From positions 251-64,250 of the forward strand of contig JBBIWA010000023.1 in the NCBI GenBank assembly GCA_037439425.1: 64,000 nucleotides of DNA, written 5' to 3'. Below the pieces are notes generated by a model that saw nothing but the letters and a program-made list of their open reading frames with translations, was not told the origin of the DNA and searched no databases. This DNA is from Acidobacteriota bacterium (lineage in GTDB: Bacteria; Acidobacteriota; Blastocatellia; RBC074). This document shows positions 4,029 through 60,806 of this stretch, piece by piece; positions within the stretch are counted from its first letter, which is position 1, and every line of letters begins with the position of its first letter. A program made the translations under genes and the position numbers.

Positions 4029-4970
4029 TTAAAATCGCGCTCCGAGTCTGACCAGATGCTGCTCCAGCATCTGGAAGTCTTCGATCAACAGCGCGCGCGT
4101 CTGTCTGATCTTGTTGATCAAGGACTCTTCCTTAGCGCCGCCGATCCATAGTTCGATTCTCGCCGGTAATTCTCGCGCGATCTTTCGCACATCTCTCAGC
4201 CCGGCTTTGGCCCCGTTGGCGCCGATAAATCCCAGGATGACCGCCTGTGGCGCGGCCTTCTGCGCGGCGGTTACAATCTCTTCGGCCGGGAGATTGGCGC
4301 CCAGGTAGACGATGCCAAATCCACCTCCGACCGCCAACATCGCCGAGAGCAGAATGCCGAATTCGTGCTGCTCTCCGCTCGGCGTGGCGAACAACAGTTT
4401 GCTGGTCGGTGCAGTTCGACGATAGAGCGGAATCAGCGATCCCAGCAGGTTCCGCAACAAGGCCGAGGTCATGTGTTCCTGCGCGACGCTCAACTTGCCT
4501 TCGTGCCATGCCTCACCCACCTCCTGCATCAATGGCAGAGCGACCCGATAAACCAGCTCGCGCGGCGTCAACCCTGCAACCAGCAGGGCCAACTCCTTTT
4601 CCGCTTCACCGTAATCCAATCGCTCAATCGCGGCTATCACCGAGCGCGGAGGATGCAAAGGCTGCTCTGGCCATCTCTTCGTCATCGCCTCCACACTCTC
4701 GATCATTGATGATGGCATCGGCGACGGCCCAGCCATCAGCGCCCGCAGCTCTTCGTCATCAAGCGCGGCCACACGGCCAATCGCATGCCCTCTCTCCACC
4801 ACGGCGTTCAGCAGTCGCAGACGCTCCACATCGGCCTCAGTGTAGAGCCGTCCGCGCCTGTCGCGCTGTGGCGTGACGACCTGATAGCGCCGCTCCCAGG
4901 CGCGCAGCGTGTCAACGCTGATCCCGGTCAGTTTGGAAACGGCGCGAATTGGATAGAGCAAGGTCTTCAT
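4029..4970 (-). CDS. carH: MerR-family transcriptional regulator with a C-terminal cobalamin-binding domain (CarH/LitR-type light-responsive repressor).
   Basis: N-terminal MerR HTH (IRAVSKLTGISVDTLRAWERRY). C-terminal B12-binding Rossmann-like domain with the E/DxHxxG signature (GEQHEFG). Confidence 0.75.
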   Translation of the reverse strand: MKTLLYPIRAVSKLTGISVDTLRAWERRYQVVTPQRDRRGRLYTEADVERLRLLNAVVERGHAIGRVAALDDEELRALMAGPSPMPSSMIESVEAMTKRWPEQPLHPPRSVIAAIERLDYGEAEKELALLVAGLTPRELVYRVALPLMQEVGEAWHEGKLSVAQEHMTSALLRNLLGSLIPLYRRTAPTSKLLFATPSGEQHEFGILLSAMLAVGGGFGIVYLGANLPAEEIVTAAQKAAPQAVILGFIGANGAKAGLRDVRKIARELPARIELWIGGAKEESLINKIRQTRALLIEDFQMLEQHLVRLGARF

Positions 4971-4987
4971 CGTGATTCAGCTTTCAT

Positions 4988-6202
4988 TCAGCCGGATTGC
5001 CTGGTCTTGACTAAGCGCGAGACGTCAAATCCCTTGGCCGCCGCCTGCTCGATGATCCTTTGATAAACCGCTTCGTCCATCTGCGGCGTGCGCGAGAGTA
5101 TCCACAGATATTTCCGATCCGGCGAGCCGACGACCGAATAACTGTAATCGGGCGCGAGCGCGATGATCCAGTAATCTCCCCAGACCGTCGGAAGCCATCC
5201 GAGCCACGCGGGCGCGAACCGCACTTTCAGTTTGGAGTTCGGCCTCCTCTCGCCGGCAAGTCTGGCTCTGCCTTCAGCCCTGGCGATCTGGCCGTTTTGT
5301 TGGCGGCATTCATTGACAACTTTCAGTTGACCATCATCGAGTTGCGAATAGGTCGCTGTCACCTCGCCAGCGCATTTCTTCTGAAACTGGTTCGGCAACC
5401 GCGCAACTTCATACCACTTTCCAGAATAACGCGAAAGCTCAACCGAAGCGACGACTTCCAACGCTGGTGGACGATCTCTTTCCGCCACAAGCGGCAGATT
5501 CGGCAGGATAAGAACCAGCGCAAACAATTTTCTCAACACAACTCCTCCGCTCGAAAGACGCTGTTTAGTTGCAGCAGATGACCCATCCGCTTTCGTCAGC
5601 AGGTAACGAAAGGCCGGCGGGCTGGCTTTGATCTCCAGCGGGACGCGCTCGACCACTTCCAATCCGGCATTGCGCAGGGCGAGGACTTTGTCCGGATTGT
5701 TCGACATCAATCGCACCCGACGCGCTCCCAATTGTTTGATGATCTCGGCGCACTGGTTGTATTCGCGCGCGTCAACCGCAAAACCGAGTTTGAGGTTGGC
5801 TTCAATCGTGTCGGCACCCTGATCCTGCAAGGCATAGGCGCGAATCTTGTTGATGATGCCGATTCCGCGCCCCTCTTGCTGCTGATAAACGATGACGCCT
5901 GCGCCTGCGGCTTTGATCATCTGCATGGCGCGTCTCAGTTGCAGCCCACAGTCGCATTTCAATGAATGAAACACATCGCCCGTCAGGCATTGCGAATGAA
6001 TGCGCACGAGAGCAGGCTTGGCCGCGTCAATCTCTCCCTTGATCAACGCCACAAATTCTTCGTCTTCTTCGTCGCTGATGACACTGCGAAATCCGGCGAT
6101 CTTGAACCGCCCAAATTCTGTCGGCAAATCAGCTTCGGCTTCCAACCTCACGGTCGCACTCTCTGTTCTTCGGTCTTGCCCGATATCCAAACGCATAAAC
6201 AC
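4988..6202 (-). CDS. ribA: GTP cyclohydrolase II (RibA) domain read in-frame into a Blc-type bacterial lipocalin domain. A signal-peptide-like segment lies between them.
   Basis: Residues 1-215: [20 protein letters not shown] zinc motif and the ERVPLEI tail of RibA. Residues ~222-404: hydrophobic [18 protein letters not shown], then [11 protein letters not shown]...YLWILSRTP...GFDVSRL, matching Blc lipocalin. Confidence 0.7.
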
Positions 6203-16619: not shown

Positions 16620-16847
16620 CTGCGCGTGAAATCTCTCGGCCCTGACCTGCCGCTGGTAGAGTTTGTGGTAATGGCCTTCGCGCTCCATCAGCTCAGCGTT
16701 AGTTCCCTGCTCAATCAGCCCGCTATTCTTCAAGACCAGGATCAGGCCGAAATTCTCCATCGCGGCGAAGTGGTGAGCGATGACGATTGTGGTCTTGCCA
16801 CGGAGCAAACGTTCGAGTGCGTCGTGAAGAAGCGGCCAGCTTATCAA
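16608..16847 (-). pseudogene. 79-aa C-terminal fragment of an ABC exporter ATPase.
   Basis: LRGKTTIVIAHHFAAMENFGLILVLKNSGLIEQGTNAELMEREGHYHKLYQRQ matches the ABC D-loop/H-loop and tail. The N-terminus is absent and the repeat module abuts it. Confidence 0.6.
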
Positions 16848-17020
16848 TCAGCGGTACCAGAGCCCATCATGAGCAAACAAGCTTCCTCGAATGTCGGCGA
16901 CGGTGTCAGGCTCTTGCTGTTGTCTAAGATATTCCGCCATTGGCGCGCCATCTGACTGAATAAGAGCGTCTCGGTGGCACGTTCAAGGCTTGTGTTTCGG
17001 GTTGGGCGGGAATTCCCGGG
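16845..17020 (+). repeat. Solo copy of the ~170-bp right-end module of the composite repeat element.
   Basis: caatcagcggtacc(a/g)gagccc...gcaaacaagcttcctcgaa...ggtctaagatattccgc...tctgactga... matches 36359-36525 and 60345-60509. Confidence 0.6.
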
Positions 17021-34984: not shown

Positions 34985-35109
34985 GGTGCAATTAAAAGTG
35001 GGACTCACCTTTACAAGCGCACGCATCTGGCGTGCTGCGCTCCTACGGCAAATCAGGCACGTCGTGCGCTCGTGAGGGCGAGCTGTTTAGTCCCACTTTT
35101 AATTGCACC
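34985..35109 (+). repeat. MITE-like or structured hairpin: 21-bp perfect inverted repeat (ggtgcaattaaaagtgggact / agtcccacttttaattgcacc) with an 83-nt spacer, flanked by ttgcagggg direct repeats.
   Basis: Read directly at 34985-35005 and 35089-35109. Flanks at 34978-34986 and 35111-35119. Confidence 0.5.
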
Positions 35110-35160: not shown

Positions 35161-36525
35161 AAGCAGCTTAACAGCAATTCCCGCTTAGCTGGATACGGCT
35201 GTAAATGGTTGAATGAGACAAAAGAGTTTCTGCACTTGAAACGGAAGAGGTTATGAAATAAGCGCGGAAGAGGTAACCAGTAAGGAATTAAACTCCCGCC
35301 CGGAGACCACTCAAGAGTTTAACTTTTGAAGCCTTTCGAGATTTGCTCACCCTGAAGTCTTCAAGCAACTCCTTTGAGAGTCGTGAGCGCGAGACCGCTT
35401 TCGCAGTGGCTGGGGTGGCACTTCAGCACATTCTTCTTCCTTCAACACCCGAGCTTGCTGGCGGTTCAGCGAGGGATGAAGAACAAAGCTGGGCGAGCGG
35501 GAGCTGGAACGAGTCTTTGAGGTATAGGAGATAATGTCTGATACGCATATGCGAGAGAGCTTGGACATGGTGCCGACCGAGTCTTTGCGGCAGCTCTGGC
35601 CTGAGGTCTTAGAGCGGACGGCTGCGAGTCGGATGGAGTGTGCAGTTTGTGACCGGGTGGGGAGAAGTATTAACTAGTCGCTTTCGAGGGAAGTGAATAT
35701 TTTCCTTCGAGGAAGATCGACTCTGCTGGGAGTTTGAGGCGCAAGGGCAAGGACGGCGAGATGCATTATTCACACGTAGTGGTCGCACGTGACAATAGGC
35801 GCGCGCCTGCAGCCCGGACACTTTGCCGCAAGAGGCCACGGCCTTGCGCCGTGGAGTCTCACGATCTTCGCTACTGAACAGATCGCTGCAGCTCGAAGAG
35901 GCCACGGCCTTGCGCCGTGGAGTCTCACGATCCTGGCTACCAAATCCGCAATCCACAATTCGCAATCCGAAATTCAAAGAGGAGTCTCACGATCCTGGCT
36001 ACTGTAACCGCGGATTAAGAGCGTTTAGGAAAAGACGTTGATGTTAGCCAGAAACGTGAAACTCCACGGCGCAAGGCCGTGGCCTCTCAAAATGATCCTG
36101 CCCCTGTGTGTAGCCAGAAACGTGAAACTCCACGGCACAAGGCCGTGGCCTCTCAAAATGCTCCCGCTCTCGTGCGTAGCCACAACCGTGAAACTCCACG
36201 GCGCAAGGAGACTGCTTAAAAAGTCCCATGAGGCCCCAATATTTGGGACTTTAGATCAGGTTAAGACACGATATACAGTATCGCTGGGAGGCTTTTTAAG
36301 CAGTCTCGCAAGGCCGTGGCATCTCAAGGAGAAAGATTGTGACGAAGAGCCCGCGTTTCAATCAGCGGTACCGGAGCCCACTTGCGGGCAAACAAGCTTC
36401 CTCGAAGCTGGGGCGGCGGCCGTCCACTCTGCCGCTATGGTCTAAGATATTCCGCAATCGGTGCGACGTCTGACTCAGTGAGGCACACTCGGGGTCCCTC
36501 GTTTCCCGCTTGAGCGGGAATTGCT
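35161..36525 (+). mobile_element. Copy 2 (full, 1365 bp) of the composite repeat element. Order: ~18-bp TIRs, a 650-bp conserved non-coding segment, A-type hairpin repeats, a central segment, an inverted B-type hairpin array, a ~170-bp end module. Flanked by a perfect 9-bp direct repeat gcagcttaa.
   Basis: TIR cagcaattcccgcttagc at 35172-35189 pairs with cagcaattcccgctcaagc (rc of 36499-36517). gcagcttaa at 35163-35171 and 36518-36526. 35215-35830 is ~90% identical to 59185-59776. Confidence 0.7.
35832..36208 (+). repeat. Hairpin-repeat arrays of copy 2: about 2.5 A-type units forward (gaggccacggccttgcgccgtggagtctcacgatcctggctac), then about 3 B-type units in inverse orientation (gtagccagaaacgtgaaactccacggcgcaaggccgtggcctc).
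   Basis: Direct reading. Same core hairpin ccacggc-N5-gccgtgg as array 1. Confidence 0.85.
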
Positions 36526-36625
36526 GGCAGCTTAAAGCGCAACTTGACAGGCGCTGGCCTCGATCCCTATACTTGCCGCTTTGCAAGCAAAGGAGATTTG
36601 TCTGTTAGTTATCAAGGAGAACTTC

Positions 36626-37085: not shown

Positions 37086-38632
37086 CGATGAAAATATTAT
37101 GGATGTGTCCCACCTGTCTAACCGCTAGAAGCGGCCAGATTTGGCGGGTTATGGATGCTCCAGCCCAGATAGGTGACGGCTTGGTAAATCTTGATCGCGT
37201 TGCGCCGTCCTTTCTCTGAACGGAAACCATCGTGGTTACGTTCCAGACGGCGCAACGTTCGCATCCCTGTCTCGGCCAGCGAATTTTGCTGCACGCCTGG
37301 CACTCTAAAAAACGTCGTCATGTTTTTGAAATTGTCTTCGAGAAATGTGATTGATTTCCTGTAACCATCATTCTCGTGATGCGCCGCATACAGCTTCAAT
37401 TCGGCCAGCTTCTCTTGCGCTTCCGCCTCAGTGGTCAGGCCTTCAAAGATGGCCCACACTTTGTGCAGGAATCTGCGCAGGAATGACATCTCCGATTGTG
37501 TCTGAAGAACCTCTTGCATGGTCTCTTTCTCTTTTGCTGTGAGGTTCTTGTCGGATTTGAAGAAGAGGTAACGGTTCTTCCATAGTTCGGCGGCCAGACG
37601 TTTGAGTTTTTCCGCGTACCATTTGGTCTCGGCAGCTTCACCACGTTCTTTGAGATCACGGCGATGCGCGCGGAATTCATCCCAGACCTTGCGCCAGATA
37701 TTCTGCAGGATGTGAAAGTAGTCGAGCTGAATATGGGCCTCCGGATAGACCGCTTTAATCGCGTTGGCATAAGCTTGCCAATGATCGATGTAAAAGGCTT
37801 TCAGCTCCAGTCCGAACCGTTTCATCCGCTCCAGGAAGGGCTCGACGTGTTCTTCCGTGACGCTTCTCGACTTCCTGCGTGGCGATGATCCGCCCGTGTT
37901 CATCCTTGAGCACAAGCAGACACTGAGTTGCGCCGAGTGCAAACAGTTCGTCAAAGTGTCCTTGCGTGATCGGCTTTTCTTTGTGCAGCAATTTGATCAT
38001 CTCCTCTTCGGAGGGCAACGAGTCGCCGACTTCATCAACCCAACGGTCGATGGCCGATTTGGAAACCGTGACTTGAAATAACACTTGCATCAACCAACTG
38101 GCTTGGCGCGAGCCGAGTCCGGCGATGATGCATAAAAAGACGCCAAGCCGCATCACCACGTCAGAGACTTTGCGCTGCGTCGAGAGAGCCCCGCCACCTT
38201 AGGCGTGAAGTAGACACGCTGGCCTTGCTCATCGATGTAATAGCCGTCGGCGGTCGTGATCCGATAGATGATCAGCCAGGCGAAGCCGGAGAGTTCTTGC
38301 ACATCAAATGTGCGTTCGTTGATCCAACGAATCTCCACGCCGCGTTTGAGCTGGAAGAGTTTGTGATAGTCGCGCTTGCGCGTATCGAACTCAATGATGG
38401 TTTTGTTGTCTTCGGCCTTTCCCTTTGGGCAAAGGTCCTCGTTCTGCTCGAGCACTGCGGTCGTCACCGGCAATTGAATGATCATCGTCTTATGAACTCC
38501 AATGTGATGGTTGTTCGTAAGATCATATGCTGGTTCGAGAAGGTTTTGAATGCGCTCCGCTCGTCTTTCCTCCATTCATTGAAAAAGCAGGCGGTTAGCG
38601 CGATTTTCCGTTAGACGGGTGGGACACACCCA
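37086..38632 (-). mobile_element. ISL3-family insertion sequence (~1.55 kb) with ~28-bp imperfect terminal inverted repeats.
   Basis: Left end aatattatggatgtgtcccacctgtctaacc versus rc of right end taatattgggtgtgtcccacccgtctaacgg. Confidence 0.65.
37118..38575 (-). pseudogene. ISL3-family transposase split over three frames (38575-38153, 38159-37755, 37954-37118).
   Basis: C-part YIDHWQAYANAIKAVYPEAHIQLDYFHI and ...NSLAETGMRTLRRLERNHDGFRS fit the ISL3 DDE domain. Middle part carries an HTH (SKSAIDRWV). Two frameshifts. Confidence 0.6.
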
Positions 38633-59080: not shown

Positions 59081-59116
59081 GGAGGGGCTGGCTCACCGCA
59101 GCCACTTCCCTCTGGC

Positions 59117-60518
59117 CACTGGTGGCAGCAATTCCTGCTCAGCCGGATACAGCCGTAAATAGTTGAATGAGACAAAAGAATTTCTGCGCTTGAACCTCTG
59201 AGAGGTCCTGAAGTAAGCGCGTGAGAGGTGAAAAGTATTAAACTCCCGCCCTCAGACCAATCAAGAGTTTAACTTTTGAAGCTTTTCGAGATTTGCTCAC
59301 CCTGAAGTCTTCAAGCGAGTCTTTGAGAGTAGTGAGCGCGAGACCGCTTTCGCAGTGGCTGGGGTGGCACTTCAGCACATTCTTCTTTCAACACCCGAGC
59401 TTGCTGGCGGTTCAGCGAGGGATGAAGAACGAAGCTGGGCGAGCGGGAGCTGGAACAAGTCTTTGAGGTAGAGTAGATAGCGTCCAATACGCAGATGCGA
59501 GGGAGCTTGGACGTGGTACCGACCGGGTCTTTGCGGAGCTCTGGCCTGAGGTCTTAGAGCGGACAGCTGCGAGTCGGATGGAGTGTGCAGTTTGTGACCG
59601 GGTGGGGAGAAGTATTAACTGGTCGCTTTCGAGGGAAGTGAATATTTTCATTCGAGGAAGATCGACTCTGCTGGGAGTTTGAGGCGCAAGGGCAAGGACG
59701 GCGAGATGCATTATTCACACGTAGTGGTCGCGCGCGACAATAGGCGCGCGCCTGCAGCCCGGACACTTTGCCGCAAGAGGCCACGGCCTTGCGCCGTGGA
59801 GTCTCACGATCCTGGCTACCAAATTCGCAATTCGCAATTCGCAATCCGAAATTCAAAGTGGAGTCTCACGATCCTGGCTACTGTAACCGCGGATTAAGAG
59901 CGTTTAGGAAAAAACGTCGATGTTAGCCACAAACGTGAAACTCCACGGCGCAAGGCCGTGGCATCTCAAATGAGCCTGCCCGCCTGTGTAGCCAGAAACG
60001 TGAAACTCCACGGCGCAAGGCCGTGGCCTCTCAAAATGATCCTGCCCGTGTGTGTAGCCACAAACGTGAAACTCCACGGCGCAAGGCCGTGGCATCTCAA
60101 ATGAGCCTGCCCGCCTGTGTAGCCACAAACGTGAAACTCCACGGCGCAAGGTGATCTATCACAATTCGTGGCTGATGGACTTTGAAGTGACCCGAGAGAA
60201 TGCAGCTCAGATCATAGGGCCTTCACGTTCTCGAATCGAGAAGCCTTCTATTCAAAGTCCACAAGAAGCACGGCTATGAATGGAAACACAACTCTTGGTC
60301 ACTTCCCTGCCCCAAGCTCTCAATGGTCTTTTCAATCAGCGTTACCGGAGCCCACTTGCAGGCAAACAAGCTTCCTCGAAGCTCGGCGGCGGTATCAGGC
60401 TGCCGTTATGGTCTACAATATTCCGCGATCAATACGTCATCTGACTCAATGAGGCACCTGCGGCGGCACACTCTGTGCCCCTCGTTTCCCGCTTGAGCAG
60501 GAATTGTTGCTCTCGACC
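59117..60518 (+). mobile_element. Copy 3 of the composite repeat element. Same architecture as copy 2, with no clear target-site duplication.
   Basis: TIR cagcaattcctgctcagc at 59126-59143 versus rc of gcttgagcaggaattgttg at 60491-60509. 59185-59776 is homologous to 35215-35830. Arrays 59777-60150, tail and end module 60150-60509. Confidence 0.65.
59777..60150 (+). repeat. Hairpin-repeat arrays of copy 3: about 1.5 A-type units forward, then 4 B-type units inverted. Inter-core segments tcaaatgagcctgcccgcctgt (twice) and tcaaaatgatcctgcccgtgtgt.
   Basis: Direct reading. Confidence 0.85.
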
Positions 60519-60806
60519 TGGCCAGCTTCATTGAGAACGACCATCACGGTAATATCTTTGTGAACCTCCCTGCCCACATACTTGACAGGTTTTATAGGAC
60601 GCCCCCTTAATTTCGTAATCTGGGTTTGGTTACCCCAAGATTACTCTAAGCGGGGCGTCCTTTCATATTACGTGCTAGAGACTTCAGGAGGGGGAATAGA
60701 AACAGAAACTCCTCCTCTTGCGGCGCTGCCTTAAGTTGCTGCAGCCGGTTGAAGGAACTTCGCTTAGTGTGGAGACACTCCGAGGATATACCCTGCGAAG
60801 GGGAAG

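Follow-up and report, generated by a model that had tools for sequence, protein, structure and literature searches.

The DNA analysed here, a stretch of 64,000 nucleotides from an Acidobacteriota bacterium (contig JBBIWA010000023.1, positions 251 to 64,250 of the forward strand; the window in what follows), contains a repeated element of almost 1.4 kb that is bounded by terminal inverted repeats (TIRs) and carries two opposed blocks of hairpin units, which we describe as REP-like (repetitive extragenic palindromic). The three copies and the solo end module proposed in the first-pass annotation of this DNA were all recovered by reading, repeat search and a four-way alignment. The parts of the element, with the means by which they were recognised, are the following.

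35172-36526: copy 2, full, 1355 bp; sequence reading, repeat search, alignment
35163-35171: left 9-bp direct repeat gcagcttaa of copy 2, target-site duplication; direct reading
35172-35208, plus strand: left TIR of copy 2 (35172-35189, CAGCAATTCCCGCTTAGC) and a 19-bp stub common to all three copies
35209-35829: 621-bp non-coding segment, in copies 2 and 3, not in copy 1; alignment
35830-35940, minus strand: A block, a pair of REP-like units at 35830-35874 and 35896-35940 that have their GTAGC tag on the minus strand
35941-36002: heptamer insert and 22-bp duplicate of the REP tail GGAGTCTCACGATCCTGGCTAC, not in copy 1; alignment, Tandem Repeats Finder (TRF)
36003-36043: centre between the opposed REP blocks, 95% identity between copies 2 and 3; alignment
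36044-36340, plus strand: B block, three units (36044, 36110, 36176), period 66; TRF, 89% matches
36209-36306: 98-bp MITE (a miniature transposable element with inverted repeats) nested in the loop of unit B3; direct reading
36356-36526, plus strand: end module with the right TIR (36509-36526); repeat search, alignment
36527-36535: right 9-bp direct repeat gcagcttaa of copy 2; direct reading
59126-60509, plus strand: copy 3, full, 1384 bp; reading, repeat search, TRF, alignment
59126-59922, left side of copy 3: left TIR (59126-59143), the segment up to 59774, a single A unit (59775-59819), the heptamer insert with the duplicate, and the centre
59923-60509, right side of copy 3: B units at 59923-60151, four in number, with the loop of the last one interrupted; then insert X (60152-60325) and the end module (60330-60509)
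641-1, minus strand: copy 1, shorter, at least 641 bp, cut by the window start
641-278, left side of copy 1: left TIR (641-624), a single A unit (604-560), the centre and four B units (510-278), of which the last is interrupted in the loop
about 270-129, right side of copy 1: insert X, then unrelated sequence
about 16844-17016, plus strand: end module standing alone, its right TIR (GCGGGAATTCCCG) degenerate; reading, repeat search, alignment

Ends, flanks and gene surroundings of the element

Copy 2 starts with CAGCAATTCCCGCTTAGC and finishes with the reverse complement of CAGCAATTCCCGCTCAAG, and the inverted repeat so formed is perfect over 14 of 14 positions and agrees at 16 of 18 overall; the TIR core, CAGCAATTCCCGCT, is matched 14/14 at both ends, and the window holds 4 matches to the TIR pattern where 0.21 would be expected. 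Both TIRs of copy 2 are directly abutted by the gcagcttaa repeats, a 9/9 match at a fixed position with p ~4e-6. The homology between copies 2 and 3 ends exactly at the 14-bp perfect inverted repeat on both sides. The stub of copy 2 is 94% identical to that of copy 1 and 84% to that of copy 3, while at the other end the end module of copy 2 shows 79% identity to that of copy 3 and the solo end is about 75% identical. Two conserved nucleotide boxes of the end module, GCAAACAAGCTTCCTCGAA and GTCTAAGATATTCCGC, are common to copies 2 and 3 and the solo end; direct reading and six-frame translation revealed neither a conserved reading frame nor a Pfam match in this module, which was not seen in the visible part of copy 1, cut as that copy is by the window start.

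The earlier description of a TIR-bounded unit without a transposase was borne out, since no conserved open reading frame (ORF) and no transposase domain in any frame were found in it, and six-frame searches of Pfam and of protein databases returned nothing. Because a 9-bp duplication is typical of DDE transposases acting in trans, the bounded unit is best read as a non-autonomous shell derived from an insertion sequence (IS). An IS with matching TIRs had been suggested as the mobiliser, and none was found in the window or in the JGI metagenomes, where the left TIR had 0 matches and the conserved end-module box had one chance match, inside a coding region unrelated to the element. The search for an empty site through the exact flanking proteins (rpsT, greA, GntR) yielded only short-read contigs of the same genome; these are broken at the element, which counts in support of the shell.

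Copies 2 and 3 are situated in unrelated gene contexts, GntR/rpsT and greA/MbtH respectively, according to a Pfam scan of the neighbours (GntR, DUF4127, the rpsT side, the ISL3 remnant, GreA, MbtH and a glycosyl hydrolase-like protein); the rpsT gene beside copy 2 was recognised through the gene record of locus L024. A tRNA scan found none. Transposase remnants had been reported next to copies 1 and 2, and this stood for copy 2 only: downstream of rpsT there is an ISL3-family transposase remnant (PF01610, C-terminal part only; 37118-37954, minus strand), and the ORFs upstream of it (37755-38575) had no Pfam match. The ORFs beside copy 1 (686-2014) were rejected as transposase remnants, for they have no Pfam-supported transposase domain.

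Immediately left of copy 2, at 34985-35109, there is a MITE-like element of 125 bp whose 21-bp TIR (GGTGCAATTAAAAGTGGGACT) is perfect; the break of L026, a short-read contig of the same genome, within it suggests that this small element is multi-copy. A truncated-looking gene fragment on the minus strand at 16621-16840 (...GKTTIVIAHHFAAMENFGLILVLKNSGLIEQGTNAELMEREGHYHKLYQRQ...) stops at the solo end module. Pfam gave no match for it, and we take it to resemble the C-terminal end of an ATP-binding cassette (ABC) exporter ATPase.

Hairpin units and the linked transposase

The core of the hairpin was matched 12 times in the window against 0.02 expected, and all window units sit within copies 1, 2 and 3. 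In the A block of copy 2 the hairpin is CCACGGC-GCAAG-GCCGTGG. According to TRF, entire units of 65-66 bp align at 87-92% identity with the inter-hairpin parts included, and these 22-nt parts proved by repeat search and alignment to be variants of one sequence. The repeat-spacer geometry of CRISPR, which the first-pass annotation had seen in the arrays, has thus to be given up, because the supposed spacers are repeated along with the unit and none of them is unique. In copy 2 the innermost opposed units, A2 and B1, pair with each other over the centre and form one long hairpin (-58.7 kcal/mol and z -9.6 for the DNA fold), which gives the pair the geometry of a REPIN.

The same units were looked for in one genome per prokaryotic species by exact match to the hairpin core, so that all counts are lower bounds. 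They were found in 23 loci of at least 8 Acidobacteriota metagenome-assembled genomes (MAGs), labelled Pyrinomonadaceae, Blastocatellia or Acidobacteriota, where the arrays lie between long ORFs; the 1-11 loci per MAG, again lower bounds, fall below the more than 100 per genome of classical REPs. By BLASTN the window element and the foreign loci have nothing but the arrays in common; TIR, 621-bp segment and end module are not shared, and none of the foreign loci contains the TIR core. Additional inverted repeats around the foreign arrays were seen only in L018 and L023, and these are unrelated to the window TIR. The idea that the arrays are peculiar to this element was consequently overturned, as the units exist elsewhere without the shell. 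In all these places, the foreign loci and the three window copies alike, n minus-strand units are followed by m plus-strand units, never the reverse.

Two foreign loci deserve separate mention. In L018 an imperfect inverted repeat of 42 bp (…GAGAATTAACTCCGGCCA) encloses the REP-like cluster at 2113-2640, whose two blocks have differing stems, CCACGGG and CCACGGC. In L015 (about 4900-5300) a second hairpin family, CCACCAA-CTCCCG-TTGGTGG, stands beside the first.

The consensus of 64 distinct units is GTAGCnGCnAnCGTGAnnCT-CCACGGC-GCAAG-GCCGTGG-CATC. The plan of the unit is accordingly GTAGC, about 15 nt, a 7-bp stem CCACNNN, the loop GCAAG, NNNGTGG and then CATC; the (G)TAGC tag is kept in at least 90% of the 64 units, and some 15 nt separate it from the foot of the stem, upstream of which it stands. 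A covariance analysis, which had been proposed as a check, was run on these units. Their collection required only the outer four stem pairs and left the inner three unconstrained, and it is these inner pairs that covary (GGC/GCC, CGC/GCG, GAG/CTC, GGG/CCC, TGC/GCA): 99.3% of the cells are paired, changes on both sides occur in 26 cells, none of 500 shuffles reached this result and slid controls collapsed. Moreover, the 7-bp hairpin is the minimum-free-energy DNA fold in all five units taken from five genomes. The arrays belong to a family of REP-like repeats that runs through the Blastocatellia/Pyrinomonadaceae lineage of the Acidobacteriota and is carried by related soil members of that phylum too.

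These observations also bear on the proposal that the arrays are the element's own transposase-binding sites, such as those in the ends of Tn7 and Mu, or a CRISPR-like guide array. Two opposed blocks with regular spacing, a period of 66 bp that corresponds to about six helical turns, and the superficial look of repeats and spacers would suit it, but the blocks are in the middle of the element, on the left side 621 bp away from the TIR, the "spacers" are homologous, and the units stand in 23 foreign loci without the TIR. In addition, no cas domain was found among the scanned neighbours of the element (the scan covered the neighbouring genes, not the whole window) and no viral contig scanned with the hairpin core gave a match. 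The proposal is already contradicted by the distribution data, and we consider it most improbable.

In the foreign locus L009 a gene that encodes two Y1_Tnp (IS200-like) domains in tandem stands between two array pairs, and homologues of the encoded protein are 280-304 aa in length. The tandem-Y1 genes are located as follows.

L009, 4556-5490, minus strand: frameshifted tandem-Y1 gene
L027, 308-1222: tandem-Y1 gene
L028, 3001-3831: tandem-Y1 gene
L029, 3001-3915: tandem-Y1 gene
L031, 2501-3376: tandem-Y1 gene
L032, 2501-3367: tandem-Y1 gene

The Y1 gene is flanked by units on one or both sides in 6/6 loci inspected, and the stem varies between genomes. In L027, L028 and L029 the same unit type is present on both sides of the gene, with the stems CCACGGC, CCACGAG and CCACCGC respectively; in L032 two opposed arrays are upstream of it; and in L031, which belongs to a Pirellulaceae genome, single TAGC-tagged units with the GCAAG loop are found on both sides. 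The Y1 fold and motifs would suit an IS200/IS605 insertion sequence, which has a single subterminal hairpin at either end and is multi-copy as a whole; here the gene is flanked by arrays of units in both orientations, and most cluster representatives were seen on 1-2 contigs. Since a Y1 gene flanked by genome-scattered repeats is what defines a REPtron, its recurrence in all six loci points to that arrangement. No Y1 domain was detected in the window by tblastn.

The protein itself is of the IS200 type. It scores about 100 bits with the NCBIfam model transpos_IS200 (cut-off 55) and 20-22 bits with REP_Tyr_transpos (NF047646, cut-off 80). With its AlphaFold model (pLDDT 85.5, pTM 0.82) Foldseek retrieved the TnpA proteins of ISDra2, IS608 and IS200 as the best matches, and E. 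coli TnpA_REP (4er8) ranked 48th. In a 40-sequence alignment the N-domain has lost the HUH motif and kept an invariant Y...Q..HH motif, while the C-domain has kept DHVH, WQ and a nearly invariant Tyr in the motif YIxNW; the Y---NP motif of the REP-associated tyrosine transposases (RAYTs) is thus absent, the C-domain having YIxNW and the N-domain Y---Q--HH in its place. The family is small: of 1.84 billion representatives searched, 98 clusters belong to it at E<=1e-30. The protein resembles a TnpA dimer made as one chain. We do not class the enzyme as a RAYT; from the linkage and the covariation we infer that it acts on the units, the system working like REP/RAYT.

Nested insertions and exchange between the copies

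Several smaller insertions were recognised inside the element. The third B unit of copy 2 is split within its loop by the 98-bp MITE, which has the TIR AGACTGCTTAAAAAG and is accompanied by the direct repeat CGCAAGG at 36202-36208 and 36307-36313; once it is taken out, the hairpin CCACGGCGCAAGGCCGTGG is restored. The last B unit of copies 1 and 3 is cut at the same loop position and is followed by a common insert of about 170 bp, X (60152-60325, and 129-270 on the reverse strand), which shows 86% identity between the two copies. Insert X holds internal inverted repeats (GAAGTGACC..., TGGACTTTGAA). A heptamer repeat, AATTCGC/AATCCGC in 4-5 copies, together with the 22-bp duplicate of the REP tail, occupies 35941-36002 and 59820-59881 and is common to copies 2 and 3, not to copy 1. 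REPs are documented insertion targets of ISs (PMC1525189). What had been taken for a structured composite is therefore largely a nest made of a REP cluster, the 98-bp MITE, insert X and the heptamer insert.

The 621-bp segment adjoins the REP cluster exactly at its outer border and shows no target duplication there, and the alignment confirmed that copy 1 is devoid of it, as had been noticed before, precisely between ...GTAAATAG and AAGAGGCCAC. Likewise, the earlier view that this segment (then given as about 650 bp) has no conserved reading frame held up: indels of 1, 2, 3 and 5 nt between copies 2 and 3 break the frames, six-frame translations had no Pfam match, and a six-frame search found no relative among 5.8 billion predicted proteins. 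No DNA relative of it was met in the array loci or the metagenomes searched, nor, by distant blastn, in the plasmid collection. Rfam returned no match at the gathering threshold for the window, and at E<=5 only a chance miRNA match for the element. RNA folding, which had also been proposed as a check, gave no signal, with z of +0.5 for each strand of the segment and of +0.1 to +0.5 over all folds, its conserved third included, that is, no excess folding energy. When copies 2 and 3 are compared, identity reaches 97.9% in the last third of the segment (35592-35829) and 86.5% in the first third. Taken together, the segment is probably a non-functional insert or a leftover of the parent element; its lack of function is what we infer, and the main alternative is that it may be a regulatory or RNA core.

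That alternative can be extended to the whole conserved middle (about 35592-36043 and the arrays), which might be a domesticated functional unit, either a promoter or other regulatory site or a transcript with REP hairpins. Between copies 2 and 3 (35592-36043 and 59537-59922) the middle is 94-100% identical and the termini 79-84%. CACGTG at 35786-35791 corresponds to CGCGCG at 59731-59736, two changes by which the 6-bp palindrome is kept, and this paired change would speak for function, as would a weak promoter-like site at 35769-35796 directed into the arrays and the roles of REPs elsewhere as terminators, mRNA stabilisers and protein-binding sites (PMC3733652, PMC2817692). But the folding and Rfam results offer nothing in its favour, copy 1 does without the segment, no relative was met in the other genomes or metagenomes searched, and the identity gradient, for which two copies were compared, is accounted for equally well by gene conversion among the recombinogenic arrays. 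A domesticated middle seems improbable to us on balance.

The distribution of characters among the copies is reticulate, copies 2 and 3 having the 621-bp segment in common and copies 1 and 3 insert X, which indicates recombination among the copies and not a fixed design. The pattern is most simply read as the outcome of recombination or gene conversion between copies; selection on a functional core may be an alternative to it.

Such a pattern could arise without any transposition, if a stretch with a REP cluster was spread by segmental duplication, ectopic recombination or gene conversion and the inverted ends and the 9-bp repeat were incidental. The reticulate characters, the middle that is far more similar than the ends, a copy 3 without target duplication and a parent IS not met in the searches made would all be accommodated by such a spread. 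Against it, the homology of copies 2 and 3 breaks off on both sides right at the perfect 14-bp inverted repeat, a 9/9 direct repeat (p ~4e-6) abuts both ends of copy 2, and the flanking genes of the two copies are unrelated; segmental spread is for us an unlikely explanation.

Even less can be said for a decayed REPtron or an element of the IS200/IS605 type whose Y1 gene, TnpB gene or guide RNA would survive as a remnant in the 621-bp segment. Y1 genes do adjoin such array pairs in related genomes, and the segment abuts an array without target duplication as IS200/IS605 insertions do, but the tblastn search of the window for Y1, the six-frame Pfam and protein searches and the Rfam search were all empty, and we regard this origin as very improbable.

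Interpretation and relation to known systems

The explanation that we favour, and hold to be probable, is that the locus is an IS-derived, transposase-less shell carrying a REP-like cluster, to which nested insertions and recombination between copies have been added. It builds on the observed repeat anatomy, the TIR, the copy 2 duplication, the stem covariation, the shell-free units and the Y1 linkage elsewhere. The locus is layered mobile-DNA debris and not a new defence or guide-RNA system. In the corresponding course of events the Y1 enzyme would recognise hairpin and tag on single-stranded DNA and so seed or maintain clusters, as RAYTs do for REPs, and the number of units would change by slippage or unequal recombination. 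The REP cluster would be a passenger in the non-autonomous shell bounded by the 14-18-bp TIR (CAGCAATTCCCGCT), which appears to have inserted whole at least once, with a 9-bp duplication, presumably by a DDE transposase acting in trans; we take the end module for the non-coding end of a lost parent IS. Later the shell would have gained the 621-bp segment at the edge of the REP cluster, the 98-bp MITE, insert X and the heptamer insert, and the copies would have swapped parts by recombination.

Several points weigh against this explanation. The 9-bp duplication, which the earlier reading took as evidence that the unit had transposed, is perfect at copy 2 and fits a non-autonomous element, but the flanks of copy 3 have no target duplication (CACTGGTGG and CTCTCGACC), and copy 1 and the solo end are incomplete. 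The termini are the least conserved parts, which is the opposite of a recently active MITE and needs gene conversion or selection on the core. As to the REP character of the units, the GTAGC tag is about 15 nt away from the foot of the hairpin, where REPs have it, and the Y1 protein fails the REP_Tyr_transpos model, being of the IS200 type and not a canonical RAYT. Finally, the source genome was read for a Y1 gene, for free REP clusters and for a matching IS within the window only, and all three window REP clusters are inside the composite, which may be chance or may mean that the shell is their sole vehicle here. Copy 3 is bracketed by the 7-mer CTGGCCA (59112-59118 and 60518-60524), at a distance of 7 nt from its left TIR and of 8 nt from its right one; this pair may be due to chance (roughly 2%) or may be a trace of an older insertion site.

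A more far-reaching view would combine three novelties: an undescribed REPtron with a single-chain, pseudo-dimeric Y1 enzyme (Tyr from the N-domain, HUH from the C-domain), a REP cluster freed from that enzyme by a DDE-mobilised TIR shell, so that two unrelated transposition mechanisms would act on one DNA, and a selected middle of about 450 bp serving as a regulatory or RNA module. We attach a small though not negligible probability to this combination.

For the reader of genomes these results remove a false lead, as the regular, CRISPR-looking hairpin arrays here are REP-type repeats, and they document, for Blastocatellia/Pyrinomonadaceae, a REP-like family and the two-domain Y1 transposase that goes with it. 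As a by-product of the work, the repeat-associated family of tandem-domain Y1 proteins is the most interesting. If the shell truly moves the cluster, REPs would be spread by a second, DDE-type route, which bears on the persistence of REP/REPIN populations. In annotation, such nests break short-read assemblies and yield spurious ORFs of 100-150 aa.

Among known systems CRISPR arrays resemble the blocks in the regular period and the palindromic repeat, but differ from them in that here the inter-hairpin parts are homologous, the blocks are two and opposed, the arrays are scattered between genes in many genomes and no cas was found among the scanned neighbours. With MITEs and other non-autonomous IS derivatives the element has in common the TIRs, the duplication (at copy 2), the lack of a transposase and the several intergenic copies; unlike them, it measures 1.36-1.38 kb against the usual size under about 0.6 kb, its interior is a REP cluster with an orphan 621-bp segment and not a deleted transposase gene, its termini are the least conserved parts and its parent IS was not found. 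The ISs that insert into REPs (IS1397, ISKpn1, ISPpu9/10 and others; PMC1525189, PMC8450116) offer a likeness for the TIR element that sits exactly in the B3 loop with a short direct repeat and for the units of copies 1 and 3 cut at the same loop position, whereas the inserts here are transposase-less and of 98-170 bp.

The REP, BIME (bacterial interspersed mosaic element) and REPIN repeats and their RAYT REPtrons (PMC2817692, PMC3333891, PMC3116915, PMC3733652) are similar in more respects: GC-rich, extragenic, clustered hairpins with a 5' tag of the GTAG type, inverted pairs that fold into a long hairpin, a stem that covaries between genomes and a Y1/HUH gene flanked by units. Unlike classical REPs, the units here form two opposed direct tandem blocks (period 55-69 bp) and do not alternate, have GTAGC about 15 nt from the foot and a conserved GCAAG loop, and occur in modest numbers (1-11 loci/MAG); unlike a RAYT, the enzyme is a two-domain protein of the IS200 type, structurally nearer to the TnpA of ISDra2/IS608 than to E. 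coli TnpA_REP. In the literature no prior description of REPs was found for Blastocatellia/Pyrinomonadaceae, and no paper was found on tandem-domain Y1 transposases.

The closest description among the literature found is that of the class 3 TnpA_Y1 REPtron-like loci of Acidobacteria and Planctomycetes, which were described as intermediate between IS and REPtron (PMC6006769). The phyla are the same, and there too the Y1 gene is flanked by multi-copy secondary structures. The class 3 proteins have about 178 aa, NHVH and YV..EQ motifs and a CnGA foot (PMC6006769), and by this description they are set apart from the present ones, with about 290 aa, tandem domains, DHVH, WQ, YIxNW and the (G)TAGC tag. 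The variant features of the system reported here are the direct tandem blocks, the offset tag, the tandem-domain IS200-type enzyme and the presence of a whole REP cluster in a TIR-bounded element.

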